Notes under the pieces: model-generated
Database searches by the model: none
What the model saw: the letters and a program-made list of their open reading frames with translations, nothing else
Told to the model about the DNA's origin: nothing
Source of the DNA: an uncultured Gammaproteobacteria bacterium
Lineage (GTDB): Bacteria > Pseudomonadota > Gammaproteobacteria > CAZDOC01
Assembly (NCBI GenBank): GCA_964506945.1
Contig: CAZDOC010000003.1
Location: 65,142-129,141 of the forward strand
DNA: 64,000 nt
Reading direction: 5' to 3'
Part shown: positions 1 through 29,412 of the stretch, in pieces
Layout: the number at the start of each line of letters is the position of its first letter
How positions within the stretch are numbered: the first letter of the stretch is position 1
Position numbers and translations under genes: made by a program

Positions 1-264
1 CAGCAGGCCCTGGATCTGGCCATCCTCGCCACCCCGTCCATGCAGGGCGATGAAGGCACGATCAAACCGTCCACGCTCCAGATTCATCATCAACTGCGCA
101 TCCGGCTCCACGGCACGGGCATCGACCCCATGTCTCTGCAGGGCCTTCAGCACCGCGCCGCCGCTCTGCAGCGATATCTCGCGCTCCGCCGACTGGCCGC
201 CCATCAGTACGGCCACCCGACCGGGATAATTGACCGCCGTGTGGGCATGTGTCTGACTACCCAT
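1..264 (-). CDS. ddl: D-alanine--D-alanine ligase, N-terminal part (gene continues beyond window start)
   Basis: Reverse-complement translation of 1-264 gives [57 protein letters not shown]..., a typical Ddl N-terminus; position after murB in the dcw cluster. Confidence 0.8.
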
Positions 265-1159
265 GCCCATGCTCCCCGACTATCCGCACCTCCGGGATCA
301 GGCTGACCCCGTGCCGGCGCTGCACCGTGTCCCTGACATGCGTGATCAGCGCCTCGATATCGCTGGCGCTGGCCCCCCCCAGATTGATGATGAAATTGGC
401 GTGCTTTTCGGAGACACAGGCGTTGCCGATGCGCCAGCCCTTCAGCCCGCTGTCCTCTATCAGGCGCGCGGCATGCCCTCCGGGAGGATTACGGAATACC
501 GAACCGCAGCTGGGCTGTCCCAGCGGCTGGGTCTCGCCCCGTCGCGCCAGCAGGGATTTGATCCGGGCCATGCCGTCCCCCGCTGCCGGTCGCAGCGCGA
601 ACCAGGCGGCGACGAACCATTCCTCCGCGGGTCCCTTGACGCTGCGATAGCCAATCTGGAAATCCTCGACGCCGCGCGTGTGCAGCTGACCGCGACGATC
701 CAGCATCCGCACCCGGGTGACGATGGCCCAGGTCTCGCCGCCGAAGGCGCCGGCATTCATCGCCAGGGCGCCGCCGATGCTGCCGGGAATACCGGCCATG
801 AATTCCGCCCCGGCGCAGCCTGCCGCGGCGCTCTGGCGGGCCAGCTTGGCGCAGGTCACGCCGGCCTCCACCCGCCACAGGCATTGGTCCTCCCGGGAGA
901 TCCCCTGCAAGGCCTTGCCGGTCGCGATCACGGTGCCGGGGAAGCCTCCGTCCCGGACCAGCAGGTTGCTGCCCAGGCCCAGCCACAGCAGCGGCTCATC
1001 CTCATCCAGGGTGGTCATGAAATGCATCAGCTCGGAGAGGTCCGCCGGCTCGAAATAACACCGCGCGGCCCCCCCGGCGCGCCAGGAGACATGCCGGGAC
1101 ATGGGCTCGTCAAAGGCCAGGTAACCGCGATAGCCTGCCTGGTCATGGGCCGCGATCAT
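257..1159 (-). CDS. murB: UDP-N-acetylenolpyruvoylglucosamine reductase
   Basis: 300-aa ORF with FAD-binding MurB-like sequence ([20 protein letters not shown]...[13 protein letters not shown]); 4-nt overlap with murC stop; dcw order. Confidence 0.9.
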
Positions 1160-13656: not shown

Positions 13657-13960
13657 GGAAATCAGGTGTTTTTTTGTGAACCAGTTCCCTTTCAGAACAG
13701 GGACTTAGCTTACAGATCCTCGGGAGGCTCTAATACTGCGGGGGCTATGGCCCCAGACTCTTCATTTACATCATCATGTTGCCATTGATAAGTAATAATT
13801 CACATTAAGTCCACCCCCGCTGTGCGGTCACTGCGGGAGGAATATCGGCAAGGCGCGGAAGAGATCCGCCACCAGGGGCGGCGGCGGCCGGCAAAGCCGC
13901 GTTTCCCGGGCCGGCAAGGGAACGCCCAGGGACGGACGTTTCCTTGCCGATATGGAAAAA

Positions 13961-14341
13961 ACGAGCCGGTCTGTAAGCCGGGTTCTGTACCATCCAGTGA
14001 TGGTGGCAGCCATTCATCTAGGCCGTGCGTCGCCGCACGGCTCCAGCGACCTACCCGGGGACTGGCGCGGACCACGCCATGCCGCTCATGGCGGCCCGCC
14101 CCCCTATTTGGTCTTGCTCCGGGTGGGGTTTACCCTGCCACCGGCGTTGGCCGGCGCGGTGCGCTCTTACCGCACCTTTTCACCCTTGCCGGCATGCCCG
14201 GGGGCATGCGTAGGCGGTATGTTTTCTGTGGCACTTTCCGTGGGCTCACGCCCCCCAGGCGTTACCTGGCACCCTGTCCTGTGGAGCCCGGACTTTCCTC
14301 TGTATCGAATCAAGGATACAGCGACTGCCCGACCGACTCGG
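13961..14341 (-). ncRNA. rnpB: RNase P RNA, bacterial type A (M1 RNA)
   Basis: Minus strand contains GGAAAGTCCGGGCTCC, AGGGTGCCAGGTAACGCCTGGGGGGCGTGAGCC, GGTGAAAAGGTGCGGTAAGAGCGCACC, CTAGATGAATGGCTGCCAC, ACAGAACCCGGCTTACAG. P1 can form between 5' GAGTCGGTC and 3' GACCGGCTC. Ends in a U-tract. Ends approximate (+/-5 nt). Confidence 0.9.
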
Positions 14342-14395
14342 GAGGGAGTGTCGGGCCTGGCGGGGATTTTTTCAAGCGCTTTGCGGATGGACCGC

Positions 14396-15241
14396 TCACG
14401 GATCCTGTTTCAAGGCCAGCGCCAGCTGGTACAGACTGTTCCTGCGCCCACCGACGATCTCAGCCGCGGCCGAGGCCGCCTGCCCGGCGGGCAGATGTCC
14501 CAGCAGGATGCGCAGCACACGTTCATCCTCGCGGGCATCCTGCGCCTGTTCGCCGGCACCCTCCACCAGCACCACGATCTCCCCGCGGCCGCGGTTCTCA
14601 TCGGCCCGCAGCCAGTCCTGCAGCGCCGCCAGGGTATCGCAGTGTACACTCTCGTGGATCTTGGTCAGTTCCCGCGCGACGCAGACCCGGCGCCCGTCGC
14701 CAAAGACCTCGGCGAGCGTGCCCAGCATCGGCAGCAGCCGATGTGGCGCCTCATAGAATATCAGCGTGCGCGACTCATCCACCAGCCCCTCCAGCCGCGT
14801 CCGGCGGGCGGCCTCCCTGGCCGGCAGGAACCCTTCGAAGCAAAAACGGTCGGAAGGCAGACCGGATACCGACAGCGCCGCAATCAGGGCGCAGGGTCCG
14901 GGTATGGCCCGGACCGGGATCCCCCGCGACCGCAATCCGCGCAACAGACGGAAACCCGGATCACTGATCAATGGGGTACCGGCATCCGAGATCAGCGCCA
15001 GGCTCCCCCCCGCCTGCAATTGCGCCGGCAGGGTTTCGCAGAGCGCGGCCTCGTTGTGTTCGTGGCAGGCACGCATGGGCGTGGTAATGCCATAATGGCG
15101 CAACAAACGCGCACTGTGACGGGTATCCTCGGCCAGTATCTGATCCACCTGACCGAGTACCGCCACGGCGCGGGGACTCATATCCTCGAGGTTGCCGATG
15201 GGCGTCGCCACCACATACAAAACCCCTTTCTCAATTGACAC
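14396..15241 (-). CDS. rsmI: 16S rRNA (cytidine1402-2'-O)-methyltransferase
   Basis: 281-aa tetrapyrrole-methylase-fold protein (VLYVVATPIGNLEDMSPRA...LISDAGTP); likely GTG start. The 981-aa ORF 14396..17341 in the track is an antisense read-through artefact across lpoA. Confidence 0.85.
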   Translation of the reverse strand: MSIEKGVLYVVATPIGNLEDMSPRAVAVLGQVDQILAEDTRHSARLLRHYGITTPMRACHEHNEAALCETLPAQLQAGGSLALISDAGTPLISDPGFRLLRGLRSRGIPVRAIPGPCALIAALSVSGLPSDRFCFEGFLPAREAARRTRLEGLVDESRTLIFYEAPHRLLPMLGTLAEVFGDGRRVCVARELTKIHESVHCDTLAALQDWLRADENRGRGEIVVLVEGAGEQAQDAREDERVLRILLGHLPAGQAASAAAEIVGGRRNSLYQLALALKQDP

Positions 15242-15310
15242 CTGACACCGCCCCCCCGGATACTGTGAAGCCTGCTGATATCGCTGCCGTAATACCGTAA
15301 AGAGGACATT

Positions 15311-17241
15311 ATGCCGTTTCCCTACCGCTTGCCACCACCGCGGACCCTGCTGACCCTTGCCGCCCTGATCGGCATGGCCCTGCTGCTCGCCGCCTGTGGC
15401 CCCGAGACCACGGTGAAGCCACAACAGGTGACCGCGCCTGCGGACGCCAGGGCCTGGCGACTCCTGCAACAGGGACAGCCGGCGGCGGCCGCCGCGGCCT
15501 TCATGGCCCTGGCGGCCAGCAGTGATGCCGGGCTGGCGCGAGGCTATCGCCTGCATGCGGCGGACGCCTTCCTGCAGGCCGGTGACATGGACAATGCCGA
15601 CAAGACCCTGAGTGCCCTGTCCGATGAGGGACTGACACCCGCGCAGAGCGCGCTGCGCGCCCTGCTTCGGGGAGAGATCCAGGTTCAGCGCCATCGCCCC
15701 AGGGAAGCCCTGGAAACGATACGCCCGCTGGACCCGAAACAGCTGCCCCCCCCCCTGCAGGCGCGTCTCCATCGCCTCCGCGCCGCGGCCTATGATGCCA
15801 TGGGCAATGCCCTGGAGAGCGCCCGCGCGCGGGTCGCCCTGGATCGATACCTGTCCACCGAGGCCGAACACGAGGCCAACAATGCCGCCATCTGGGCCGA
15901 TCTGAAGCGCATCAGACCCAAGGTCCTTAGCGAACTCCTGCCCGCCAGGGCCGATACCCTCTCCGGCTGGATGGAACTGTCCATCATCGCCCGCACCGAT
16001 GTCCTCGATACGAAGCTCTTCGCCGAGGCCATCTCCAGCTGGCAACAGCGATATCCGCAACACCCGGGGATGCGCTCGCTGGTCTCGAAACTGACCGAAA
16101 CCAGCAAGATACTCGATGTCAGCCCGGCCAGCCTGGCCCTGCTGCTGCCCTCCAGCGGCCGCTTCGCCGGTGCCGCCGCGGCCATCCGTGACGGCTTTCT
16201 GAGCGCCTGGTACACGGATCCCAGGGCGGACAAGCCGCCCATCAGGATCTATGATGCCAATGCCGCGAATATCGATTCCGTCTATCGGCAGGCCGTCGAT
16301 GACGGCGCGGAACTGATCGTCGGCCCCCTGGACAAGGCCGCGGTCGAATCCCTGGCCGCACGCAGCGAACTGCCGCTGCTGACCCTGGCCCTGAACCAGG
16401 TCGACAGGCCCAGCAACAGCAAGGCCGCTGACCCTCGACACCGGCTGCTGCAATTCGCCCTGGCCCCGGAGGACGAGGCCCGCCAGGTGGCCGAGCGCGC
16501 CTGGTTCGATGGTTATATCAACGCCCTGGCCCTCACCCCCGAGGGCGAGTGGGGACAGCGGGTCATCAAGGCCTTCAGTGACCGCTGGCTGGAACTCGGA
16601 GGCAAGCTGCTGTCTCAACAGGGTTTCAAGCCCGGGGCCGCGGATCTGTCGGCACCGGTCAAGCGCCTGCTGGGCATCGATGCCAGCGAGCGCCGCCGCA
16701 AACGCCTGCAGGCCAGCCTGGGGGAAAAACTGAAATTCGAGGTGCGCCGGCGCCAGGATGTGGATTTCGTCTTCATGGCCGCATTCCCGCGCGACGCCCG
16801 CCAGCTCCGCCCGCTGTTGCGTTTCTTTCACGCCAGCCAGGTGCCGGTGTACGCCACCTCGCAGGTATTCAGTGGCAAGCCGGATGCCGAGGCCGATCGG
16901 GATCTGAACGGCTTGATCTTCGCCGACATGCCCTGGGTGATCGATCATGGTGGCGGCTCGCCAGCCCTCTATCATCAGATCCAGCGTGACTGGCCGGACA
17001 CCGCCGCACGTTACACACGCCTCTATGCCCTGGGCATCGATGCCTATGGCCTGATCCCGCACCTGGGCCGCCTGCAGGTCAATGACTATGCCAGCTATGA
17101 AGGCGAGACCGGCAGCCTGAGCATGGATGCCGGCGGCCATGTCCACCGGCAGCTGAGCTGGGCGCGGTTCCAGGATGGCCTGCCGGTACCCCTGGCCGCG
17201 GAGGCTGCATCCAGCCCCCTGCTGAGCGCCAGGCTGCCCCG

Positions 17242-17245
<4 letters not shown>
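15311..17245 (+). CDS. lpoA: Penicillin-binding protein activator LpoA (lipoprotein)
   Basis: 644 aa with lipoprotein signal (LLLAACGP), N-terminal TPR-like region and C-terminal periplasmic-binding-like domain; conserved rsmI-lpoA-yraN-diaA-dolP synteny. Confidence 0.8.
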
Positions 17246-18257
<1,012 letters not shown>

Positions 18258-18930: not shown

Positions 18931-20193
18931 CTATTCCACGCCGTCGATGACCAGATTACGCCATTCACTGGTGGCGATACCCACCCCGTTTTTGTCTATG
19001 GCGACAACACGCCAGCGCAAGGCATCCCCGGCATATCGCTGCAGCCAGGGCGGCGCCCTGTAGCTGGACCCGGTGGACTTGACGATCGCCGACAACACGG
19101 GCCCCTGGTCATTGACCAGCTCCAGCTTGTAGAAGGCCGTATCGGGGTGGTTGATCCAGGTGAATTCCAGTTTCGTGGGGAGGATCCGGGCATCGCTACC
19201 CGGCAGCATCAAGCCGATCCGGCCCCTGGCCACCGGGCGGTCCAAGGCTTCCTCCTCCGTTCCCACATAATAGCGGAGTACCGGCAGCGGGAAACCGGCC
19301 ACCCCTCCGCTGACCGCAACACCCGCCAGGGTGTTTGAATCGCCTTCCTTGTCGTCCGTGGCCTCTATGCGCAGCAGGACACGGTACAGGCCACCGCCGT
19401 CCGTGGTCGGCCTGATACGTCTGGGTCCCGGCAGATAATAGCGACCCGTCGGGGGCAGAAACACTTCGAACCGCTCCAGCAAGGTATATCGTTTTTGCGT
19501 GCCCCGCTGTTCCACGGGTAATGTCGCCTCGGTCAACAGATCGCGCGTACTGGGCTCCGCGTCACCGGGATAGACCAGTTCCCAGCGGCCCTTCAGACGC
19601 CCGCTACCGTTATAGCGGATATCGGCCCCGAAATCGGGCAACGGCTCGCCGGTTCCAACGGCCAGGATGGCCTTGTCCCCGCCCTTGGCCGCGAAGCTGA
19701 TCTTCACGTCGGTCAGGGCGAAGGGCACCCTGGCGCCTCCTCCCGCCATCCTGCAGGTCACGGTGACAAAGGTATCGACCCCACCATTGCGGAATTGCCG
19801 GACGTAGAAGAATTCCGACGAATTGCCCCGCAAGGCCTCCTGGAATGCCCGCCTGGTGACGGAATCGGGGATGGTCATGATGTCGGTGAAATTTTTCACT
19901 CCCCCGGTACCACTCACCGTGGACTGGTCGTTGCGCAGGGGCAGACTGCCGAAGATCGTTCCCGGAACACAGGGATTGAAGCCGAGCACGCCGGTTGCGG
20001 TGACATCGCCACACCAGAAGGCGGCAACGGCCCGTTCCCCCGCCGCCAGTCCCTGGAAGGTTATGAATACCGTCGTCGGGCCATGAGAACTGACATTGAC
20101 GCCGGTCGGGTTTCGACCGGTTATGGCGTCTGCCGCCGACGCCAGCAGCCACAGACAGACAATGAGTAAAGTGCGATATTTAGGTGCCATCAC
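18931..20193 (-). CDS. Hypothetical secreted protein (420 aa, cleavable signal peptide), translationally coupled to the upstream beta-barrel gene
   Basis: Long ORF with N-terminal signal (MAPKYRTLLIVCLWLLASAADA); only 11 nt separate it from the preceding stop; no family recognised. Confidence 0.6.
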   Translation of the reverse strand: MMAPKYRTLLIVCLWLLASAADAITGRNPTGVNVSSHGPTTVFITFQGLAAGERAVAAFWCGDVTATGVLGFNPCVPGTIFGSLPLRNDQSTVSGTGGVKNFTDIMTIPDSVTRRAFQEALRGNSSEFFYVRQFRNGGVDTFVTVTCRMAGGGARVPFALTDVKISFAAKGGDKAILAVGTGEPLPDFGADIRYNGSGRLKGRWELVYPGDAEPSTRDLLTEATLPVEQRGTQKRYTLLERFEVFLPPTGRYYLPGPRRIRPTTDGGGLYRVLLRIEATDDKEGDSNTLAGVAVSGGVAGFPLPVLRYYVGTEEEALDRPVARGRIGLMLPGSDARILPTKLEFTWINHPDTAFYKLELVNDQGPVLSAIVKSTGSSYRAPPWLQRYAGDALRWRVVAIDKNGVGIATSEWRNLVIDGVE

Positions 20194-20204
20194 AGGGTTC
20201 CGGA

Positions 20205-22508
20205 TTAGAACAGGCTGATACTCAGACCTGAATTGACCGACCAGGTTCTGGCCGAACTCGAAAAGCCAAAGCTGTTATCGAGACTTTCACTCTCCTGAAA
20301 GGTGTAGCGGACAAACAGCGAGCCCGGGATTTTCCGCTCACCTATGGATGGCAGGGCAAAACTCCAGTTGAGCTGGGCCTGGCCATTGTTGTCCATACGC
20401 TGGGCGATCGACAGATCATCATCCTGGCGGGTATGGGTAAAGTTTGCATTCAGCGACCAGTTCTCCAGAAAGCGCCAGTCCAGCCCGGTATTGACCGTAT
20501 TGGTATGGCTGACGTTACCCGCTGCGATATCCTTGTTATCGACCATGGAGTAGGACACATTCAGGTTGAGCCGATCCAGGGGATTGATGGAGATGGAGAA
20601 GTCGTTACCGAAATTGCGGAAATCGTTCAGTGTACGTCCGACCTGCTGATTGTCCTGCCAGGAATTGGAATAGGTATAAGCGGCCGACCAGCGGGGACCG
20701 GACCAGTTAAGCCCCAGGCGCTGGTCCCGGTTGAACTGTTTCGGCAGATGACTGCCGCCATTGAAACCGCTCAGGGCGCCAGTCGGATTGTTGCCCGCCT
20801 TCTGGCGTACCTCGTTGACGGAATAGGTGGCATTGGGGATCAGGTACTGCACCAGCCCCGGAGGCCGGAATATCGTACCCAGCGGCACATTCAGGTTCAT
20901 TGACCGGGTGTAGGTCTTGGTCCGCAGCAGGGTCGGTATGTTATCGACATTGTCATGCGTATCGACATAGACATACTGCAGTGAAACACTGTTGATGGAG
21001 GCGCTGAGACTGTACTGGTCCTTGACCACATCGGGAGTGACGAAGGCGCCTATCGAGCGGTACAGGGCATCGGCCTGGTCGCGCCGGTATCCCAGCGTCA
21101 GGCTGACCTGATATCCCTCTGCCGGCGAATACTGCCGCAACAGATCGTAGGCCACATCCGTGGAATAGGCGCTGTCGGCTTCCCGCTTCACGGGCAGGGC
21201 ATTGCCGTTGGGATCGATCACTGGATCGGCGGGGTTGACATAGTTGCTGCGGGCAAAGAGGACACTGCCACGCAAACGTCCGCCGGGCGTGCTCCCCGAC
21301 AGGGTGACGCCATAACCATCACTTTGCTCTGCATCGACCACTTCCCCGATATTGAAGTTGGTCTCGTTCCTTTTCGAGGCTGTCATATAGGACACCTCCG
21401 CCCGCAACCCGCCGGGACGGTCCTTGATGAACTCGAGCCCGACCGTGCCCGCGGTGATATTGTGCTTGCCGAGGTCCCGCAACCCGAAGAAATTGTTGAA
21501 CCCGACGATACTCGTGGCATTCATTGTATTGAACGAGGCATCGAGCCGATCGCTGAAGCGGTGATACAGGACCAGTCCACGGCTGGCGACATTGTTGATG
21601 AGCAGGGGGTTGCCGCCGTAGCTGATGTGCCCCAATTGCAGGCGGCTGTCGCCTTTCTGCACATCGATCAGGTAATCGTTCATGTCATACTTCGGCGCCC
21701 GCCCGCCCAGTTCGCCAAATCGCAGGGCCTGCTGGCGGTTGGAGAAGCCTGAGAGATTGATCGAGGTGTCTATCACCAGGTCCCCACGGCTATGCCGGGT
21801 GACCAGTCCGGCCTGGATCTCGGTATCCTTGAAGGTACGCCGCCTGGGGCGGGGCGCGTCTTTCTCGAAGGAAAAATGATTCCGGGTATTGACGGAAACA
21901 TCCAGCCTGGGGGCAATCTCGGCTTGCTCGAAACCGGATCCCGTCAACACCCGCAGGGGCCGCCTGGCCAGTTCCTGCCAGTCCTCCGGTCCCCTGGCCA
22001 GATACACGATCAACTCGTGCGCCCCTGGGGACAGCGCCACCACGCCCCCGGGGTAGACCAGATCCGCCTCGCCCCTGATCCTGAACAGGGCGGACATGTC
22101 GATATTATCGACGAAGACCTTGAGAAAGCCCTCCGCCGGATCCGGGATGCGATCGAAACCCAGGCTGATGCCATCGCTGACCGCGAGCCACTTGTCGTCA
22201 GCGAAATTCGTGGCCTTGAGCATGACCGGGACAGCCGCCGGGGCGGCGTCCACCATCGCCTCCGCGGGGGTCTCATCATCAGGGAAGTCCATGCCCTCGA
22301 AGGCATTATCGAGGTCATCGCCGCCGGCATCGGGCGCCGCCTCACCCTGCGCGTCCGTGGCCGTCGGCGTTTCCGCCGGGATCACGACATCGTCGAAGGC
22401 GTCATCGAAGACAGCGCTGTCCGCGGCGGCAAGCGGCGCAGCGAAGCAGGCGAGGATGGCACCGATCAGCAGCATGCCGTGGAGACCGACGACTTTCAGA
22501 AGCCGCAT
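20205..22508 (-). CDS. Large outer-membrane beta-barrel protein with acidic N-terminal extension (uncharacterised)
   Basis: Signal peptide MRLLKVVGLHGMLLIGAILACFAAPLAAA; Asp/Glu-rich about 90-aa segment; then about 550 aa of alternating Y/F/W-rich strands ending ...NSGLSISLF (C-terminal Phe typical of OMPs). The track ORF extends to 22631 but the signal-peptide Met is at 22508. Confidence 0.65.
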   Translation of the reverse strand: MRLLKVVGLHGMLLIGAILACFAAPLAAADSAVFDDAFDDVVIPAETPTATDAQGEAAPDAGGDDLDNAFEGMDFPDDETPAEAMVDAAPAAVPVMLKATNFADDKWLAVSDGISLGFDRIPDPAEGFLKVFVDNIDMSALFRIRGEADLVYPGGVVALSPGAHELIVYLARGPEDWQELARRPLRVLTGSGFEQAEIAPRLDVSVNTRNHFSFEKDAPRPRRRTFKDTEIQAGLVTRHSRGDLVIDTSINLSGFSNRQQALRFGELGGRAPKYDMNDYLIDVQKGDSRLQLGHISYGGNPLLINNVASRGLVLYHRFSDRLDASFNTMNATSIVGFNNFFGLRDLGKHNITAGTVGLEFIKDRPGGLRAEVSYMTASKRNETNFNIGEVVDAEQSDGYGVTLSGSTPGGRLRGSVLFARSNYVNPADPVIDPNGNALPVKREADSAYSTDVAYDLLRQYSPAEGYQVSLTLGYRRDQADALYRSIGAFVTPDVVKDQYSLSASINSVSLQYVYVDTHDNVDNIPTLLRTKTYTRSMNLNVPLGTIFRPPGLVQYLIPNATYSVNEVRQKAGNNPTGALSGFNGGSHLPKQFNRDQRLGLNWSGPRWSAAYTYSNSWQDNQQVGRTLNDFRNFGNDFSISINPLDRLNLNVSYSMVDNKDIAAGNVSHTNTVNTGLDWRFLENWSLNANFTHTRQDDDLSIAQRMDNNGQAQLNWSFALPSIGERKIPGSLFVRYTFQESESLDNSFGFSSSARTWSVNSGLSISLF

Positions 22509-22627
22509 GAAGCATCCGGTCACCTCCACCGCCCCTGACCTCCCAATAAAACACTGGGCATTTCTGTGATATTCATTATGAAAGAGCGATATTCTCTTGA
22601 TTGTTCTTATATGGCAATGCCGGCAGA

Positions 22628-25600
22628 TCAATAGTTTCCAATGTCGAAAAACACGCGCCCGCCGCTCACAGGATAGACCGCCTTTATGCGCTTGGCGCCC
22701 GAGAAACGCACGATCGTGTTCAGCCCATCGATCAGGGCCGTCTCAATGGCCTGCTTGTCTATCCCGCCATTGACACCGGCGTTGATCTTGCCCAGCAGCC
22801 ATCCCTTTATCAGCGACAGGGGAATGTTGGAATTGGCCACATCGAGACTGAAATCACTGGCGAACTCCAGCCGTGTATCGCGTAGTGGCGTCAACTCGCC
22901 CTGCCGATTGACAAATGCATGGATGACGATCCTGAGTTCGGGCGATATCAGGTCCCCGGTGACCGCCCGGCCGAATGCCCTGCCCACGATCTCGTTGCCA
23001 CTGGTTTCGAAGGGGACCGTGATCGTGAACGTCAGCTGTTTCGTGCCACTGACCGTGGTCGACAGGGTCGGGCTGTTGGCGCTCATGTCGGCGATATCGA
23101 TATGCACCCGCCCCCCCAGACCATCATAGGGCGGAACCTCGAAAGTGGTGCTATCACCCAGCAGCGAGATGCTGCCGCTACCGATGGGAGCCCCTATGGT
23201 CGCGGTGAACTGGCTCAGCAGCCCATTCGCCCAGTCGGCATCCAGGACCCAGTAGGCGAACCGTGACATCTTGCGGGTAACGCCATTCACGCGGTAGTCG
23301 GCTCCGCCCAGCGTATCATGGACACTGATGTAGCCAGCTTCAAATCCAGTGTCCCTGAAATTGCTGACCTTGGCCTTGATGAGGTCGAATGTACCGGCCT
23401 GGCTGCGCTGCATTATCCTTGCCGCAACCCGGCCAACTTTCACTTCGGTGATACCGCTAAAGTTGTGTCCCTGCAGATAAAAAACACCATCGCTGCTGTC
23501 CGGATTCTGTAACAGGGCGGGATCGACGATGCCCTTGCCGTGGATCTTCTGTCCGCCAAGACCGGGCCGGTAGTCGTCTATCCACATGTCCGTGATCTCG
23601 GGCTCGGCGGGGAAGTCGCCTACGAACCGGAATGAAATGGAGAACACCAGCTTCCGTATCTCGCCCTGGGGTGTGGTGATTTCCAGATAGGGTAATGTCA
23701 TGGTGACTTGTCGATTGTTCTTCCATGCCTCAAGACGATCACGGCTGGGCTGGAGGACATAGGTCGCGCGCCGACCCGTATCATTCCTCACCGTGTCACT
23801 CAGGCCGCCCCATCGGTAGTGACTCCATCCCGGACTGGCGCAGGCATCCAACTCGATATTCCTTCCGGGTTCGTAGGTCACCATCAGGGGCTGCTGGAAC
23901 TGGATCCAGTAATCTCCATAGGGAGCCGGCGTTGCCGAGTCGAAATCGAGGGTTCTGGTTTCTCCGCCACAGGGGATCTCTATGGTCACGGAGTGCCGGT
24001 TTCTCGTCGCGGTGGCGGCAGCCTGCACCGCGCTGGCGACACTGGCACTGCTGGCGGTGGTCGATGATGTCGTACCACGCGCCTGGTGCTGCCTGCCGTT
24101 TGTCCTGCCAGCGGACGCCGCTGGACGCCGTGTATCCTTGACCTTAGCCTGCTGGGCGGGAACCCCGCCTGGCCGCCGTTCCTGCAACAGGGCAGTCGTC
24201 CCAGCCGCCGCAGGCGCCTTGCGCGACGGCGCCATGCCCCGCTTGCCGGCGGGAGCCGATGAGGACCCGGCCGCAGTAAGCGAGGTCCTGGAACCTGGGC
24301 CCTTCGCCCCCTGCCTGGACGTCTGCACAGGACCGTCCGCCGCCCGCAGCAAGCCCACCTGGATGGATTTCACCGGGCTCCGGACCCTGCCGGTATCCAG
24401 GGCAACGACGCTCAGCCCCTGGTCGCCGCCCTTCGAGGCAATCAGGTCCATGGTGAAGACTTCTCGCTTCCTGAACGGTGCCCTGGCCTTCAGCGTCCGG
24501 CGCTTGCCGGCATAACTGGCCGCAATGGCCACCACGCCGGCATCATCCGTGGCGGTGATGCTCGCCCGGAACTTCTGTCCCGGTTTTATCTTGGCGGGGA
24601 TGGAGATATTCGTCACCTGCGGGGGCTGATTGGCCCTGGCGCCCACGCCTCCGCGGCCTGACGCGGCGGCCCTGGCGGGGGTCCGGACGGGAGGCCGCGC
24701 AGCCGCGGCGGCGACCTGGGCTGCGGGCTTCGCCGGCCGCCTCCTGGTGGCCGCCTTGCCGCGTGGGGCCTTGGCCGCCACGACCGGTTTCACCTCCGCC
24801 GCCGCCGAGGCCCTGGCCGCCACCGTGGCGGTCCCCGCCGGGGCGTTGGCGGAGCTCCCCGCCCGTTGCCCCGCGGCGCGGCCCGGTCTGGCCGTCGCGG
24901 ACCGGCTCACCGGGGTGTTGACCGCCACCGGCCTGACCGTCTTCGCCTTGGCGGTACCGGAATTGGCCCTCGTGGTGGCCGCATTCACCCGGCTCACCCG
25001 CAGCGTCGCCGTGCCAACGGGCCGTTTGTTCCGGTCCCTCAAGATCAGCACATAGCGGCCTGGCGCTTCCTTCTTGTCCAGCCCCAGGGTCACCGTGCAC
25101 TGGCTCGCAGAGGGACAATTCAAACTGGGGTTGAAGCTGGCCACGGACCGGGGCCCCTGCATCACCACCACGCTGCTGGCCGCACCCAGAGCCTTGCCGG
25201 TGAGGCTCAGGGTCCGTTCGTTCCCCACCTGCAAGACCACCGAGGCCGGCGTCAGCTTCAGCGGTTGTGGCAGCTTGACCACTGGCCTCGGTGGCGTCTT
25301 CCCAGGTGTCCTTGCCGCCGTGTTGGTACTGGACCGCGTGGCCGCCACCCGGCTCACCGGGGCGACCGTGGGCGCCGGCGCGACGCGCCGACTCGCGGCC
25401 TGGCGGGACTTCGTCGCCACCGGGGCGGTGGTGATCTTCACTACCCGCAGGGCCGCGCTGGCCACCGGCAGCTTGCGGGCGGACTGCAGCATGACCACAT
25501 ACACGCCCCTGCGGATACCCGCCCTGGGCGTCAAGGTGACCTCACAGCGTGTCGCGCTGGGACAGTTCAATGCCATGCCGGCGTGCTGGCTGGGCTTGCC

Positions 25601-25792
25601 CCCCTGGTACAACACCACCCTGGCGGCCTGAGTCAGATCCTTGCCGCTCAGGGTCAAGCTCTGGACCCGGCCCACGCTCAGGCTCACCGACGCCGGTGTG
25701 ATCACCACGCGCTGCGCCGCCTGCACGCCCAGGCAGACGAACGATAGCAGCAACAGATACGGCAGTGTGTTTATCTTCCTGTTGGTCATCCT
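22628..25792 (-). CDS. Large secreted/surface protein with tandem Ig-like domains separated by basic Ala/Pro/Arg/Lys-rich linkers and an about 450-aa C-terminal globular domain
   Basis: Signal peptide MTNRKINTLPYLLLLSFVCLGVQAA. Two homologous about 90-aa modules (VVITPASVSLSVGRVQSLTLSGKDL... / LKLTPASVVLQVGNERTLSLTGKAL...) plus a third degenerate one; long low-complexity basic linkers. The track ORF extends to 25873. Confidence 0.65.
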   Translation of the reverse strand, partial: RMTNRKINTLPYLLLLSFVCLGVQAAQRVVITPASVSLSVGRVQSLTLSGKDLTQAARVVLYQGGKPSQHAGMALNCPSATRCEVTLTPRAGIRRGVYVVMLQSARKLPVASAALRVVKITTAPVATKSRQAASRRVAPAPTVAPVSRVAATRSSTNTAARTPGKTPPRPVVKLPQPLKLTPASVVLQVGNERTLSLTGKALGAASSVVVMQGPRSVASFNPSLNCPSASQCTVTLGLDKKEAPGRYVLILRDRNKRPVGTATLRVSRVNAATTRANSGTAKAKTVRPVAVNTPVSRSATARPGRAAGQRAGSSANAPAGTATVAARASAAAEVKPVVAAKAPRGKAATRRRPAKPAAQVAAAAARPPVRTPARAAASGRGGVGARANQPPQVTNISIPAKIKPGQKFRASITATDDAGVVAIAASYAGKRRTLKARAPFRKREVFTMDLIASKGGDQGLSVVALDTGRVRSPVKSIQVGLLRAADGPVQTSRQGAKGPGSRTSLTAAGSSSAPAGKRGMAPSRKAPAAAGTTALLQERRPGGVPAQQAKVKDTRRPAASAGRTNGRQHQARGTTSSTTASSASVASAVQAAATATRNRHSVTIEIPCGGETRTLDFDSATPAPYGDYWIQFQQPLMVTYEPGRNIELDACASPGWSHYRWGGLSDTVRNDTGRRATYVLQPSRDRLEAWKNNRQVTMTLPYLEITTPQGEIRKLVFSISFRFVGDFPAEPEITDMWIDDYRPGLGGQKIHGKGIVDPALLQNPDSSDGVFYLQGHNFSGITEVKVGRVAARIMQRSQAGTFDLIKAKVSNFRDTGFEAGYISVHDTLGGADYRVNGVTRKMSRFAYWVLDADWANGLLSQFTATIGAPIGSGSISLLGDSTTFEVPPYDGLGGRVHIDIADMSANSPTLSTTVSGTKQLTFTITVPFETSGNEIVGRAFGRAVTGDLISPELRIVIHAFVNRQGELTPLRDTRLEFASDFSLDVANSNIPLSLIKGWLLGKINAGVNGGIDKQAIETALIDGLNTIVRFSGAKRIKAVYPVSGGRVFFDIGNY
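25050..25770 (-). repeat. Diverged tandem intragenic DNA repeat encoding the two Ig-like modules
   Basis: Segments about 25080-25290 and 25530-25740 align at roughly 70% identity (e.g. gtcaccgtgcactggctcgcagagggacaattcaaactgg vs gtgacctcacagcgtgtcgcgctgggacagttcaatgcc). Confidence 0.6.
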
Positions 25793-25897
25793 CGCATTCA
25801 CTGGCGCTGAACTCCGTTGGGCAATACGGCCTAAGGTGAGGATAGGCAATCCACAACCGTCACGGTATCCCATGAATTGGGGGTGCCGGTCCGGCCC

Positions 25898-26617
25898 TCA
25901 GCGGAGGCGGTCAGCACAGATACCCCAGATCTCCCTGCGATAGACATGCAGCTGGTAGGCGATATCGCCAGTAGGCTCCTGATGCCACTTGATCTTTATT
26001 GGGCTGCATTGCAGGCAGCCCGGCTCGGGCCGGGACAGGATCCTGGCCAGGCCATAGCGCCCTTGCTGCAGCAGTTGCGCATGATCGAATATCAGGGCCC
26101 GGTGACGACATGCCGGCGGCGAATTGCCGACCTGATAGCTGTCCACCCCCTTGTCCCCGACCGACCTGCTGGAACTGCGCGCAAATACCAGCAGGTCCTT
26201 CACCGTACCCGCCGGGATCATCCGTGCTATCGACCTGCCAGGACGGATCACCGGCCTGATCGTATAGTGGCGGCTGTTGCTGCCACCCTTCTCGGCCACC
26301 ACCTGTACCTGCACCCGCAGGCCCTTGTTCAAATCCCTGATCCGGACCTGTATCCGGGTCTCCTCCCAGGATTCGATCTGGACGCTGTATTTCAGGCCGT
26401 GACCATAATCGGCGATGACCTCACAAGCTTGACAGCGCTGACCAAAATCATGGCCTGAAAGGGTGACCCGGTTCTCCTGGGCACCCTGGAGTGACAGTAT
26501 GGAGGGACTGGACTGCGCCCCGCAGATGAGCGGCATGAAGCAGCACAGGCCTGTGGGCAATAACAGATACCGTCTGCTGATCCTGCTATTGCCCCGGCAT
26601 GGTATCGCGACCTTCAT
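25898..26617 (-). CDS. Hypothetical small secreted protein with an Ig-like module related to the repeats of the large neighbour
   Basis: 239-aa ORF; hydrophobic N-terminus (YLLLPTGLCCFMPLICGA); ENRVTLSGHDFGQ resembles the TLSG/SLTG core of the neighbouring repeats. Confidence 0.5.
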   Translation of the reverse strand: MKVAIPCRGNSRISRRYLLLPTGLCCFMPLICGAQSSPSILSLQGAQENRVTLSGHDFGQRCQACEVIADYGHGLKYSVQIESWEETRIQVRIRDLNKGLRVQVQVVAEKGGSNSRHYTIRPVIRPGRSIARMIPAGTVKDLLVFARSSSRSVGDKGVDSYQVGNSPPACRHRALIFDHAQLLQQGRYGLARILSRPEPGCLQCSPIKIKWHQEPTGDIAYQLHVYRREIWGICADRLR

Positions 26618-26767
26618 GGTTCATGGATTATGTTCCGGAACGGACCAGTGTCTATCCCGTAAATAGGGGAGCCCCGCAACGGCACCCGGGCGGGGCAGGC
26701 CCCGACACCGCAGGCGCACCAGCACCCGGGGGTCCACGGCTCCGGTATCCTTGCTCGAAATCTTCGT

Positions 26768-28660
26768 TCAGGGGTCTGCCGTGGCGATGGGCAGCCAGAG
26801 ACTGACCCGGGTGCCGGAATCATCGGAAATCAGCTCGAAGAGGGCGCCGATCCGCTCCGCCCTGCGGCGCATATTGTCCAGGCCCCTGCCGCCGGATGCC
26901 GGTTCGCGCATGCCCCTGCCGTTGTCCTGAATCTCGACGATCACCCCAGGGAGGTCCCCGCTGTTCATCTCCCGGGTCAGGATCCTGATCTCGCTGGCTT
27001 TGGCGTGCTTGATGATATTGCTGATCGCCTCCTGCAGGATGCGCAATACCTGCAAGACCTTCTCTGGACCCAGCCCCGAGACCCTGGGGATATCGCTGAC
27101 ATGCCATCGCATCATGATGTTGCTTCGTTCGAGGCGTGGCTGGATCCGGGATCGGTACATGGCCAGCACGCTATTCAGATCATCCTCGACCGGGTCCAGG
27201 GAATCGATCATCACCCGCAGGTCATCGAGCGCGCCGTGCAGGGCATCGAGGATCTCTTCCCTGCTGGCATTACTGGTCTCGACCATCGACAGTGTCGAAA
27301 TGAGATGGCCACCCATACCATCGTGCATCTCCCGCATGATGCGCTCGCGTTCCATGATCAGCACCTGTTCCTTCTCCATCTGACGCAGGCGCTGGTAGTT
27401 GCGCTCCAGTTCCTGGTGCTTCTCCGCGACGCGCATGCCCAGCTCTATGTTGAGCCGCTCCGCTTCATCCAGGGCCTTCACAAAACGCGTCAGCAGGATC
27501 CAGCTGAAGATCAACAGCGGGACGGGCGCGGCATAATGCATCATCAGGCCATTCTCCCGGCTCACGAAGTCGTTCAGCATCAGCCAGTCATGAACGCCGA
27601 AGACTATCAGCAGGAGTCCGGACAGGAGCAGGAGATAGGCCCCCACATCGCGCTGCTTGCGGTACTCGTACATCAGCAACGATGCCGGATAGATCCCCAG
27701 CAGCAAGGACAGGGTATCGACGACACGATGACCCACGGTGGGCAACAGGCTTTCCGGCACCAGCAGCAGCGCGATCGCGCCGATCGTCCCGGCGATCACC
27801 AGGCCTCCCTCCAGAAGGTGACGTTCCACGCCGGTGAATCTGTGTACGAACAGGGTCACCAGGATCACGAACCAGGCCATGGTCGTGAACCACAACCATT
27901 CCCAGACATGGCTGGAGGTGGGTATATGGGTCACGAACAGGTTCAGGTTGTGGATGGCCCAGACGAAGAGCACCAGGGAGAACCAGCCGTAAACCGAATC
28001 CCGCCGGTGCAGATACCACAGCACGCCCATGAAAAAGCCCATGACCACCATGCTCCCGGTCAGGATCCGGGCGATCGTCACCTTGAGAAAATACCGCAGT
28101 TCATAGGCCGGCCGCAGCACTTCATCCGGCGCCAGATGCACCTTCCCCAGATAACCCGATCCGGGAGACAGCGCCGCGATCCTGATGACCACGATGTTTT
28201 CACCGGTATTCAACATGCCATTGGGGATCATGAAATACTGCGGGGTGTTCCAGTTCCGGGTCATCGGCGCGTCAAAGCGCCCGCCATCACCGAGCAGGTG
28301 TCCGTTCAGATAAACCGCCGTATTCATGTTGATCGTGGGCAGAAAGATCGCCCACAGGCGATTGGGCGACACGTTCAGGTCCAGGGCAAACCGGTACCAG
28401 GCATTGTGCGACTGGGTATCGGCATGCCGCCAGTCATCAGGAAGTACGCCAGGGCGCCAGCCGGCATTTCGTGAGGGGGGGGTGACGCCATCCTGATAGA
28501 GGACAGTCACCTCATCCATGGTCAGGATGTTGTCCGGCAGCCAGGATTGCGCCAGATAGCCGACTATCGACACGGTCGCCGGCAGGCCGAAGAATACCAG
28601 GCCTATGACCAGCATCCAGCTGCGCCTGGCGCTACCCGCCGAATTCGTACCGTCACTCAT
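26768..28660 (-). CDS. Sensor histidine kinase, 7TMR-DISM type (periplasmic 7TMR-DISMED2 domain, 7 TM helices, HisKA_3 and HATPase_c)
   Basis: 630 aa; N-terminal signal/TM, about 170-aa periplasmic domain, seven hydrophobic helices, then REMHDGMGGHLISTL (HisKA_3 H-box) and ILQEAISNIIKHAKAS...DNGRGM (ATPase N/G boxes). Confidence 0.85.
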   Translation of the reverse strand: MSDGTNSAGSARRSWMLVIGLVFFGLPATVSIVGYLAQSWLPDNILTMDEVTVLYQDGVTPPSRNAGWRPGVLPDDWRHADTQSHNAWYRFALDLNVSPNRLWAIFLPTINMNTAVYLNGHLLGDGGRFDAPMTRNWNTPQYFMIPNGMLNTGENIVVIRIAALSPGSGYLGKVHLAPDEVLRPAYELRYFLKVTIARILTGSMVVMGFFMGVLWYLHRRDSVYGWFSLVLFVWAIHNLNLFVTHIPTSSHVWEWLWFTTMAWFVILVTLFVHRFTGVERHLLEGGLVIAGTIGAIALLLVPESLLPTVGHRVVDTLSLLLGIYPASLLMYEYRKQRDVGAYLLLLSGLLLIVFGVHDWLMLNDFVSRENGLMMHYAAPVPLLIFSWILLTRFVKALDEAERLNIELGMRVAEKHQELERNYQRLRQMEKEQVLIMERERIMREMHDGMGGHLISTLSMVETSNASREEILDALHGALDDLRVMIDSLDPVEDDLNSVLAMYRSRIQPRLERSNIMMRWHVSDIPRVSGLGPEKVLQVLRILQEAISNIIKHAKASEIRILTREMNSGDLPGVIVEIQDNGRGMREPASGGRGLDNMRRRAERIGALFELISDDSGTRVSLWLPIATADP

Positions 28661-29318
28661 CGAGTCTGATGATCCCCAGTTGCATGGCCTCGAAAACCGC
28701 CTCTCCCCGGGATCTTACCGAAAGCTTTTTATAGATATTCTTGATATGCGAGGTCACGGTATGCCCTGACACGTCGATGATCCCGGCGATCTCGTTATAG
28801 CTGAAACCCTTGGCTACATAACGGAGGACCTCTGTCTCTCTTTCCGTCAAGTGGGGTGCGTCTGCGTTACCGCCCACTTCGCCGCGATGCTGTCCGCCCT
28901 GGAATCGTCGCAACAAATGTCGCGCGATCGACGGACTCATCGGCGAAGCCCCCCCCGCGAGTTCGATGATTGATGCGCCTATCGCATCCATGCTGCTGTC
29001 CTTCAGCAGATAACCCGATGCCCCGGCCTCGATGGCCGAGAGCACATGTCGTTCATCACCGAACACGGTGATGACCATGATCTCCGTATCGGGGTATTGC
29101 CTGACCGTCTCCTCGATGATCTCCACCCCTTCCCCATCCGGCAGTCCCAGGTCCGTGACCAGGATATCCGGGGCCTGCCGCGCCAGGACCTCCCGGGCGG
29201 CATGGCAGCTATCCACCGCGGCCAACAGGCTCAGGCCCCGATGTCCGGTGATGGCCTGGGCGAGCTTGTTGCGCGTATTGGTGTCATCCTCGACCAACAT
29301 CACGGAATACGGTGGCAT
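28653..29318 (-). CDS. NarL/LuxR-family response regulator (REC and HTH_LuxR)
   Basis: SVMLVEDDTNTR...DILVTDLGLPDG receiver and C-terminal LTERETEVLRYVAKGFSYNEIAG...TVTSHIKNIYKKL LuxR HTH; 8-nt overlap with the kinase gene; start at MPPYS preceded by AGGGG. Confidence 0.88.
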   Translation of the reverse strand: MPPYSVMLVEDDTNTRNKLAQAITGHRGLSLLAAVDSCHAAREVLARQAPDILVTDLGLPDGEGVEIIEETVRQYPDTEIMVITVFGDERHVLSAIEAGASGYLLKDSSMDAIGASIIELAGGASPMSPSIARHLLRRFQGGQHRGEVGGNADAPHLTERETEVLRYVAKGFSYNEIAGIIDVSGHTVTSHIKNIYKKLSVRSRGEAVFEAMQLGIIRLDE

Positions 29319-29370
29319 GGCGGTGCCCCTGCCCTTGTCAAGGAAACCCTGATTAATCCAGAGTTTCCGC

Positions 29371-29412
29371 GGCACATGGATGTGCCCTGATAATTCATGA
29401 ATGAATTATCAG
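29371..29412. promoter_or_regulatory. Two adjacent perfect palindromes upstream of the response-regulator gene (candidate operator)
   Basis: GGCACAT-GG-ATGTGCC (29371-29386) immediately followed by CTGATAATTCAT-GA-ATGAATTATCAG (29387-29412); AT-rich in a GC-rich genome. Confidence 0.45.

Follow-up and report, generated by a model that had tools for sequence, protein, structure and literature searches.

The stretch of DNA analysed here (the window) comprises 64,000 nucleotides of an uncultured Gammaproteobacteria bacterium (lineage CAZDOC01; GenBank assembly GCA_964506945.1, contig CAZDOC010000003.1, positions 65,142 to 129,141 of the forward strand). Its minus strand carries, at 20205-22508, a gene for a predicted outer-membrane beta-barrel protein and, directly downstream, a gene for a secreted protein designated w420. 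Together they are a previously undescribed two-gene outer-membrane module, the members of which are strictly paired. An earlier reading of the letters by a model (the original prediction) had described the barrel protein as bearing a long acidic N-terminal extension complementary in charge to the basic linkers of the adjacent protein, for which it might serve as exporter or anchor. The features of the pair are as follows (window coordinates).

20205..22508, minus strand: outer-membrane protein gene, 767 amino acids, member of an unnamed family (translation, profile search, AlphaFold2 model)
22422..22508, minus strand: signal peptide, residues 1-29 (read from the sequence: basic n-region, hydrophobic core, cleavage site between AAA and D)
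22224..22421, minus strand: acidic disordered tail, residues 30-95 (composition, low model confidence, two copies of a motif of the type F(G)DAFDD[IV]x[IV]P, the second degenerate)
21945..22223, minus strand: N-terminal beta-sandwich domain, residues 96-188, presumed periplasmic (AlphaFold2 model, family conservation)
20208..21926, minus strand: predicted 26-strand beta-barrel, residues 195-767, C-terminal Phe (DSSP on the AlphaFold2 model)
18931..20193, minus strand: partner gene w420, secreted protein of 420 amino acids with three beta-sandwich domains like those of immunoglobulin (Ig) or fibronectin type III (FnIII) (adjacency, AlphaFold2, Foldseek)

The barrel protein and its partner

The barrel gene runs from an ATG at 22508 to a stop codon at 20205-20207. 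A GTG seven codons upstream of the ATG is an alternative start and is the one used by the database copy of the protein. The N-terminus, MRLLKVVGLHGMLLIGAILACFAAPLAAA followed by DS (FAAPLAAA before DS), has the typical features of a Sec signal peptide, including an AXA motif for cleavage. The AlphaFold2 model, based on an alignment of 13 sequences, has a mean predicted local distance difference test score (pLDDT) of 76.9 and a predicted template modelling score (pTM) of 0.62. The N-terminal sandwich is modelled with seven strands in residues 97-187 (pLDDT 84-90) and is kept across the family, with a conservation of 1.90 bits. Residues 195-766 form 26 antiparallel strands according to DSSP, mostly with pLDDT above 80, and the strand connections alternate between turns of 2-4 residues and loops of 4-19 residues. 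Residues on the lumen side of the strands are polar and those facing outward are hydrophobic or aromatic. The model has no plug domain inserted in the barrel, the longest insert being 19 residues, and the barrel extends to the C-terminal Phe of the sequence ...GLSISLF. A large C-terminal barrel of 20 or more strands ending in Phe had been predicted from the letters, and the model bears this out. Conservation is highest in the presumed extracellular loops (2.38 bits), followed by the strands (1.97) and the periplasmic turns (1.55). The extracellular loops of ordinary porins are usually their most variable parts, and the pattern seen here is unusual for an outer-membrane protein.

The w420 gene begins 11 nucleotides past the stop of the barrel gene. 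Its product has a type I signal peptide and no lipobox Cys. The AlphaFold2 model of w420 (pLDDT 80) consists of three beta-sandwich domains, for which Foldseek returned generic FnIII and Ig folds only and no usher or chaperone structures. Mean pairwise identity among the homologues is 66% for the first domain (D1), 62% for the second (D2) and 39% for the third (D3). Segments 23-29 and 282-296 are modelled with low confidence yet are among the most conserved, a pattern typical of peptides that become ordered when a partner is bound, and they may be peptides of that kind. The protein also carries an invariant N-terminal peptide, NPxGVNV, again modelled with low confidence.

The pairing was followed in 86 related loci from the Gamma-, Beta- and Zetaproteobacteria, Cyanobacteria, Acidobacteriota and Gemmatimonadota (four phyla). 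Wherever the sequence upstream of a w420 homologue is available, the gene immediately preceding it on that strand encodes a barrel homologue, and the median gap between the two genes is about 12 nucleotides. A pattern scan located w420 relatives in about 360 of 185,579 species representatives, and the homologues of w420, more than 2,243 in number, are all annotated as hypothetical. The partner is the better conserved of the two, with identities among relatives of 44-74% for w420 and 28-63% for the barrel. The original prediction had looked for the partner of the barrel in its upstream neighbour; the conserved partner is instead the downstream triple Ig-like protein of 420 amino acids. An apparent fusion of barrel and partner at one locus (L081) was rejected as an over-extended open reading frame (ORF) in a high-GC contig.

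The barrel protein has no Pfam or NCBIfam family and no sequence relative in the PDB, and none of the four secreted proteins encoded at the locus (the barrel, w420, and two proteins described below, w1081 and w239) matches Pfam or NCBIfam. A word-index search recovered only 13 homologues of the barrel. An exhaustive profile search gave 1,196 clusters at 50% identity (E ≤ 1e-3), 502 of them with E ≤ 1e-30, from Proteobacteria, Cyanobacteria, Acidobacteriota and Gemmatimonadota. Sequence searches of the PDB with family profiles of 13 and 118 members returned nothing meaningful. Foldseek against the PDB gave generic barrel matches only, the best template modelling score (TM-score) being that to MtrB (6r2q_B; TMq 0.41, TMt 0.47), with FimD, TonB-dependent receptors, AlgE and LptD all scoring lower. 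Clear homology to a housekeeping outer-membrane family, which would have spoken against the original prediction, did not appear in any of these searches. No description of the barrel and partner family was found in the literature on 26-stranded barrels, plug-and-barrel systems and CARDB gene clusters. Cultured carriers of the family include Aliikangiella marina GYP-15, Leptothermofonsia sp. ETS-13, Tolypothrix sp. VBCCA 56010 and Aurantivibrio plasticivorans.

The acidic tail and the upstream giant protein

Upstream of the barrel gene, the same strand encodes a protein designated w1081:

22628..25789, minus strand: w1081, clade-specific giant secreted protein, 1053 amino acids counted from Met29 of an ORF extending to 25873 (translation; no Pfam family)
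24005..25717, minus strand: basic N-terminal half of w1081, mature residues 25-595, Ig-like modules joined by Ala/Pro/Arg/Lys linkers (charge profile)

The tail of the barrel protein (residues 30-95, about 66 amino acids) contains 19 Asp or Glu and no Lys or Arg. Relative to the composition of the remaining protein, acidic residues are in excess (P = 3.5e-5) and basic residues are deficient (P = 1e-3). The pLDDT of the tail is below 40, and residues 1-91 are disordered in the AlphaFold2 model. The acidic segment had been predicted at about 90 residues; an acidic tail is present, at about 66, and the last 25-30 residues of the predicted segment belong to the folded beta-sandwich domain. The Arg/Lys-rich linkers that had been predicted for the neighbour are likewise present: mature residues 25-595 of w1081 include 91 Lys and Arg versus 16 Asp and Glu, a net charge of +75.

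A search with w1081 returned only itself among 5.8 billion proteins. Its residues 350-508, which cover a basic linker and the third Ig-like module, are 45% identical over 161 amino acids to a protein of 1428 amino acids encoded at the same position in a related locus, L007 (3083-7369, plus strand), and this protein also has long linkers, rich in Lys, Ala, Pro and Thr. The two giants have only these roughly 160 residues in common. The architecture of the L007 giant is adhesin-like: Pfam detects a thrombospondin type 1 domain (E 3e-11), and the protein has numerous beta-rich repeats in tandem. At L089, the C-terminal fragment of a large gene (2-874, plus strand) upstream of the tail-bearing barrel P0004 encodes two CXXCH motifs (CKKCH and CALCH). 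The C-terminal halves thus differ completely, the giant proteins of different clade members ending in unrelated modules. The C-terminal region of w1081 itself, 458 amino acids, has no detectable relative. From their sequence, the linkers of w1081 resemble tracts of the histone H1 and AlgP type and could bind DNA, polyphosphate or acidic polysaccharide.

Among 234 family barrels inspected, the tail was present only in the window protein and in P0002, P0003 and P0004. A fifth tail was recognised in a sequence fetched later, L091, the contig of which begins inside the tail. All five tail-bearing sequences form one clade. The motif F(G)DAFDD[IV]x[IV]P is present in all five tails and in two copies in three of them, including the window protein with its degenerate second copy; outside this short motif the tail is poorly conserved. 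The barrel gene is directly preceded by a large gene in the four clade members with a visible upstream region. Two of the loci, the window and L007, have complete sequence, and in both the product of the large gene has basic linkers. Between them the opposite charges are maintained with different residues, the window combining a tail of Asp/Ala/Pro with linkers of Arg/Ala/Pro and L007 combining Glu/Asp/Ile/Val with Lys/Ala/Pro/Thr. The sister clade (L087 and L088) has neither the tail nor the basic giant. Its partner protein is 63% identical, the barrel protein there has 707 amino acids, the signal peptide leads straight into the N-domain, and the gene upstream encodes an unrelated gamma-glutamyltranspeptidase. 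Further members of the tail clade were sought in two scans of metagenome contigs and by tblastn against plasmids, and none was found. The co-occurrence of the tail and the basic protein is restricted to this clade. Charge pairing between tail and linkers is plausible, on support that is real but thin, because the co-occurrence represents one evolutionary gain.

Low-complexity sequence occurs at other positions elsewhere in the family. Linkers of 90-130 amino acids rich in Pro, Gln, Glu, Ser and Lys separate the N-terminal sandwich from strand 1 in three cyanobacterial loci (L030, L055, L069) and in P0011, P0014, P0026, P0045 and P0139. So variable a tether suggests a distant periplasmic partner to which the N-domain must extend. 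Glu/Pro-rich or Asp/Glu-rich acidic inserts of 40-100 amino acids are present in the loop after window residue 428 in the same three cyanobacterial loci and in P0045. Long N-terminal "tails" at L034, L043, L047, L061 and L065 were rejected as ORF over-extensions in high-GC contigs.

Gene neighbourhood

The pair and w1081 belong to a block of six genes on the minus strand, which in order of transcription encode a LuxR-type regulator, a 7TMR-DISM kinase, w239, w1081, the barrel and w420. The three genes not yet described are:

28653..29375, minus strand: LuxR/NarL-type response regulator (Pfam Response_reg and GerE; overlaps the kinase gene by 8 nucleotides)
26768..28660, minus strand: 7TMR-DISM histidine kinase (Pfam 7TMR-DISM_7TM, HisKA_3, HATPase_c)
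25898..26617, minus strand: w239, small secreted Cys-containing protein, 239 amino acids, recurrent accessory gene (no Pfam family)

The block (18931-29375) lies between a BON-domain gene and sspB and is flanked by housekeeping genes, with rsmI, lpoA, a SIS-domain gene and the BON-domain gene (dolP/yraP-like) on one side and sspB, sspA and cytochrome bc1 genes on the other. Its G+C fraction is mostly 0.58-0.61, compared with 0.62-0.68 in the flanking DNA; only the part that codes for the Ala/Arg-rich linkers of w1081 departs from this. The lower G+C points to acquisition by horizontal transfer. Searches for a tRNA gene, an integrase, flanking repeats or an Rfam element at the block edges found none, and promoter and terminator scans of the locus gave background levels.

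Members of the 7TMR-DISM kinase family occur near the barrel and w420 pair in 19 loci, together with LuxR regulators, and homologues of w239 occur in 12 loci, beside the histidine kinase gene, the barrel gene or both. A family of small secreted, Cys-rich, basic proteins of 130-200 amino acids (no Pfam model) is present in 21 loci, in several of them beside the kinase or regulator genes. A second family without a Pfam model, termed "KNGW", consists of small secreted proteins with a shared C-terminal region ...LKNGW[KR]...V.V; it is present in 15 loci directly downstream of the pair and is sometimes fused to CARDB. Carriers of these two small families, listed together, include L027, L028, L045, L062, L082, L036, L065, L063 and L079. 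A further small secreted family recurs in 8 loci. The adjacent same-strand genes, 100 in all, have CARDB as their sole recurrent Pfam family (5 members), and no chaperone, ATPase, glycosyltransferase, cytochrome set, or inner-membrane or ATP-driven machinery recurs among them. The recurrent neighbours support a role at the cell surface or in the envelope under dedicated regulation.

Farther from the block, a bacterial class A RNase P RNA lies at 13958-14340 on the minus strand (Rfam, 325.8 bits), between mraZ and rsmI. Two plus-strand ORFs that overlap it, 13822-14967 and 13952-15238, have no Pfam match and are probably not genes. An ORF of 981 amino acids at 14396-17341 (minus strand) is real only in its C-terminal third, which is rsmI (TP_methylase); the remainder overlaps the true lpoA gene (LppC) at 15311-17245 on the plus strand and is an over-extension of an ORF in high-GC sequence.

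Proposed role and comparison with known systems

The leading hypothesis, held tentatively, is that the module of barrel and w420 serves in surface display or export. We infer a physical complex, a topology, a cargo role and a docking of the tail on the linkers, which would fit together as follows. By analogy with LptD-LptE and MtrB-MtrA, the barrel and w420 would form a stoichiometric complex of the plug-and-barrel type. A 26-strand barrel should need an occupant of its lumen because it has no inserted plug and only short loops, and on those precedents w420 may be that occupant. The slowly evolving D1 and D2 would sit in or against the lumen and the conserved loops, and the variable D3 would be the exposed end. 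Because the module is often under the control of a 7TMR-DISM/LuxR two-component system and beside variable secreted Ig-like or CARDB proteins, it is proposed to anchor such surface proteins or to pass them through the outer membrane. In the clade of the window, the giant with basic linkers and the periplasmic acidic tail would have been added together, and the tail, as an added docking element, would capture or guide the basic linkers of w1081 in the periplasm.

A broader version of the hypothesis is considered doubtful. In it, the pair would be an unrecognised, widespread translocon or anchor for Ig-like and CARDB surface proteins, and hence a new pathway of secretion or display that depends on Sec and not on ATP, with disordered "adaptor" tails (here F(G)DAFDD) that are specific to a lineage and matched to its cargo. 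Central machines of the envelope, for example LptDE, the Mtr complex and the ushers, belong to the class of very large outer-membrane barrels that have an obligate partner. The present family is unnamed, comprises more than 1,000 clusters and spans at least four diderm phyla, and it can be recognised as a coherent module by its strict partner and recurrent two-component system. If it does prove to be a route of display or export, the known pathways for outer-membrane proteins would gain one more, and the clade-specific acidic tail with its basic cargo would be a natural example of a machine gaining a new substrate. The cultured carriers make the module testable.

Several observations weigh against a role in display or export, or against the docking of w1081. 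The barrel model is built from only 13 sequences and has a pTM of only 0.62. About one quarter of the loci have the pair without a close same-strand neighbour on either side (some are cut by contig ends), so the pair is often alone with no candidate cargo gene nearby and a cargo role is therefore not required. From locus to locus, the giant proteins have unrelated C-terminal halves. The charge facing the lumen does not correlate with the charge of the partner; a correlation of whole-protein charge between barrel and partner is weak (rho -0.24, p 0.047, no phylogenetic correction) and is not leaned on. The net charge of the tail, -19, is small compared with the +75 of the w1081 half.

The remaining points against docking also favour an explanation in which the complex of barrel and w420 stands and the tail has nothing to do with the giant, being a generic disordered spacer in the periplasm, a binder of divalent cations or a solubility tag, while the giant is exported differently, for instance by type II secretion. 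The joint presence of tail and basic protein counts as only one event in evolution, and the tail is poorly conserved beyond its short motif. The family has repeatedly gained low-complexity inserts elsewhere (the Pro/Glu/Gln/Ser/Lys linkers, and the acidic Glu/Pro inserts of the cyanobacteria and P0045, which lie in a presumed extracellular loop), none with basic neighbours, and acidic disorder may therefore serve the general function of the family. The motif F(G)DAFDD[IV]x[IV]P, on the other hand, is kept in five of five tails across about 40% sequence divergence, which points to a defined ligand and not to bulk charge, and the tail and the basic giant were gained together, both being missing from the sister clade. 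An unrelated tail is a serious possibility, although judged improbable on balance.

Other explanations concern the module as a whole. The barrel might be a large regulated pore and w420 the binding or gating subunit of a substrate-specific channel that takes up a bulky nutrient, for example an oligosaccharide, and is induced by the adjacent two-component system. This would account for the recurrent 7TMR-DISM sensor and LuxR regulator and for the polar lining of the lumen; the family occurs in environmental polymer degraders (for example Cellvibrionaceae and Kangiellaceae), and folds of the Ig, FnIII and CARDB types often bind glycans. It is nevertheless unlikely: the 100 neighbouring genes have no recurrent glycoside hydrolases, periplasmic binding proteins or inner-membrane transporters and encode mostly secreted proteins without an assigned function, the barrel has no TonB box and no plug domain, and a 26-strand pore far exceeds the known diffusion channels in size. 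Just as the presumed periplasmic beta-sandwich at the N-terminus is reminiscent of the ushers, the module might be a non-canonical platform for fibre or pilus assembly, with the barrel as usher, w420 as chaperone, plug or tip, and the small secreted neighbours as subunits. FimD is among the Foldseek matches (TM about 0.33), one to four small secreted proteins of 130-270 amino acids, sometimes paralogues, lie beside the pair in many loci, and the invariant NPxGVNV peptide of w420 with its low model confidence would suit such a role. The absence of any Pfam usher, chaperone or fimbrial match, the count of 26 strands instead of 24, the lack of a plug within the barrel and of C-terminal domains, the lack of usher or chaperone structures in the fold search with w420, and the many loci without any small-subunit gene make a fibre platform quite improbable. 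An exporter of lipid-linked glycan like LptD or GfcD, or a sheath for electron-transfer proteins like MtrB, would have the right number of strands, since 26 is the count of both LptD and MtrB. MtrB also gives the best TM-score, GfcD came up in the literature on 26-stranded barrels (PMC11494523), and one related locus fragment (L089) has its two CXXCH motifs. The barrel has no Pfam match to OstA/LptD, YjbH or MtrB_PioB, the four window proteins lack CXXCH, and genes for glycosyltransferases, lipid transport and multihaem proteins do not recur among the neighbours. With its defining partner genes missing, this last explanation is largely refuted and is given very little weight.

Display or export by a complex of barrel and w420 can be set beside several known systems. 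The pair shares with LptD-LptE a periplasmic, beta-rich N-terminal domain followed by a C-terminal 26-strand barrel, and a separately encoded soluble partner as putative occupant of the lumen (plug-and-barrel). It differs in having no sequence or Pfam relation to LptD (no OstA/LptD match even at E ≤ 1) and in the N-domain, which is a small seven-strand sandwich and not the OstA jellyroll. Unlike LptE, w420 is a triple Ig-like protein without a lipobox and not a lipoprotein. The genes of barrel and w420, unlike those of LptD and LptE, are always adjacent, and the family is not universal among diderm bacteria, given the approximately 360 carriers in the scanned representatives. MtrB-MtrA(-MtrC) offers the best structural match, a 26-strand barrel that sheaths a periplasmic partner, with a surface-exposed partner encoded in the operon. 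The window barrel has no MtrB_PioB Pfam match, however, and MtrB has no N-terminal domain; the likeness is limited to barrel size, and the CXXCH motif is absent from all four proteins of the window island.

The FimD and PapC ushers likewise combine a large barrel with a periplasmic N-terminal beta-sandwich, which recruits the substrate in ushers, and are encoded alongside Ig-fold proteins. The window barrel differs in having 26 strands and not 24, no internal plug, no C-terminal domains and no match to PF00577, and neither PapD-like chaperone genes nor pilin genes were found among the window neighbours or the 100 neighbours in related loci. The original prediction had likened the barrel and its neighbour to an usher and its cargo; as a statement of membership this fails, for want of a plug domain, a chaperone gene and an usher Pfam match. 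Three further families were rejected: Omp85/TpsB (no Pfam matches to POTRA, Bac_surface_Ag or ShlB, and 26 strands versus 16), the 22-strand TonB-dependent receptors (no Plug or TonB_dep_Rec Pfam matches, with generic Foldseek matches to BtuB and FepA at TM 0.27-0.30) and the general porins (Porin_4, 13.1 bits versus a cut-off of 27 bits, E 0.085).

For the acidic tail, a parallel is the proline-rich spacer of TonB, in which an acidic Glu-Pro segment pairs with a basic Lys-Pro segment in the periplasm. In TonB both segments belong to one polypeptide, whereas the tail and the linkers are on two proteins, and the likeness would be one of analogy alone. The window protein itself has the features by which the pair family is defined, namely an N-terminal sandwich and a barrel matching profile A1/A3, with a w420 homologue encoded directly after it, and it is the protein that seeds the profile.

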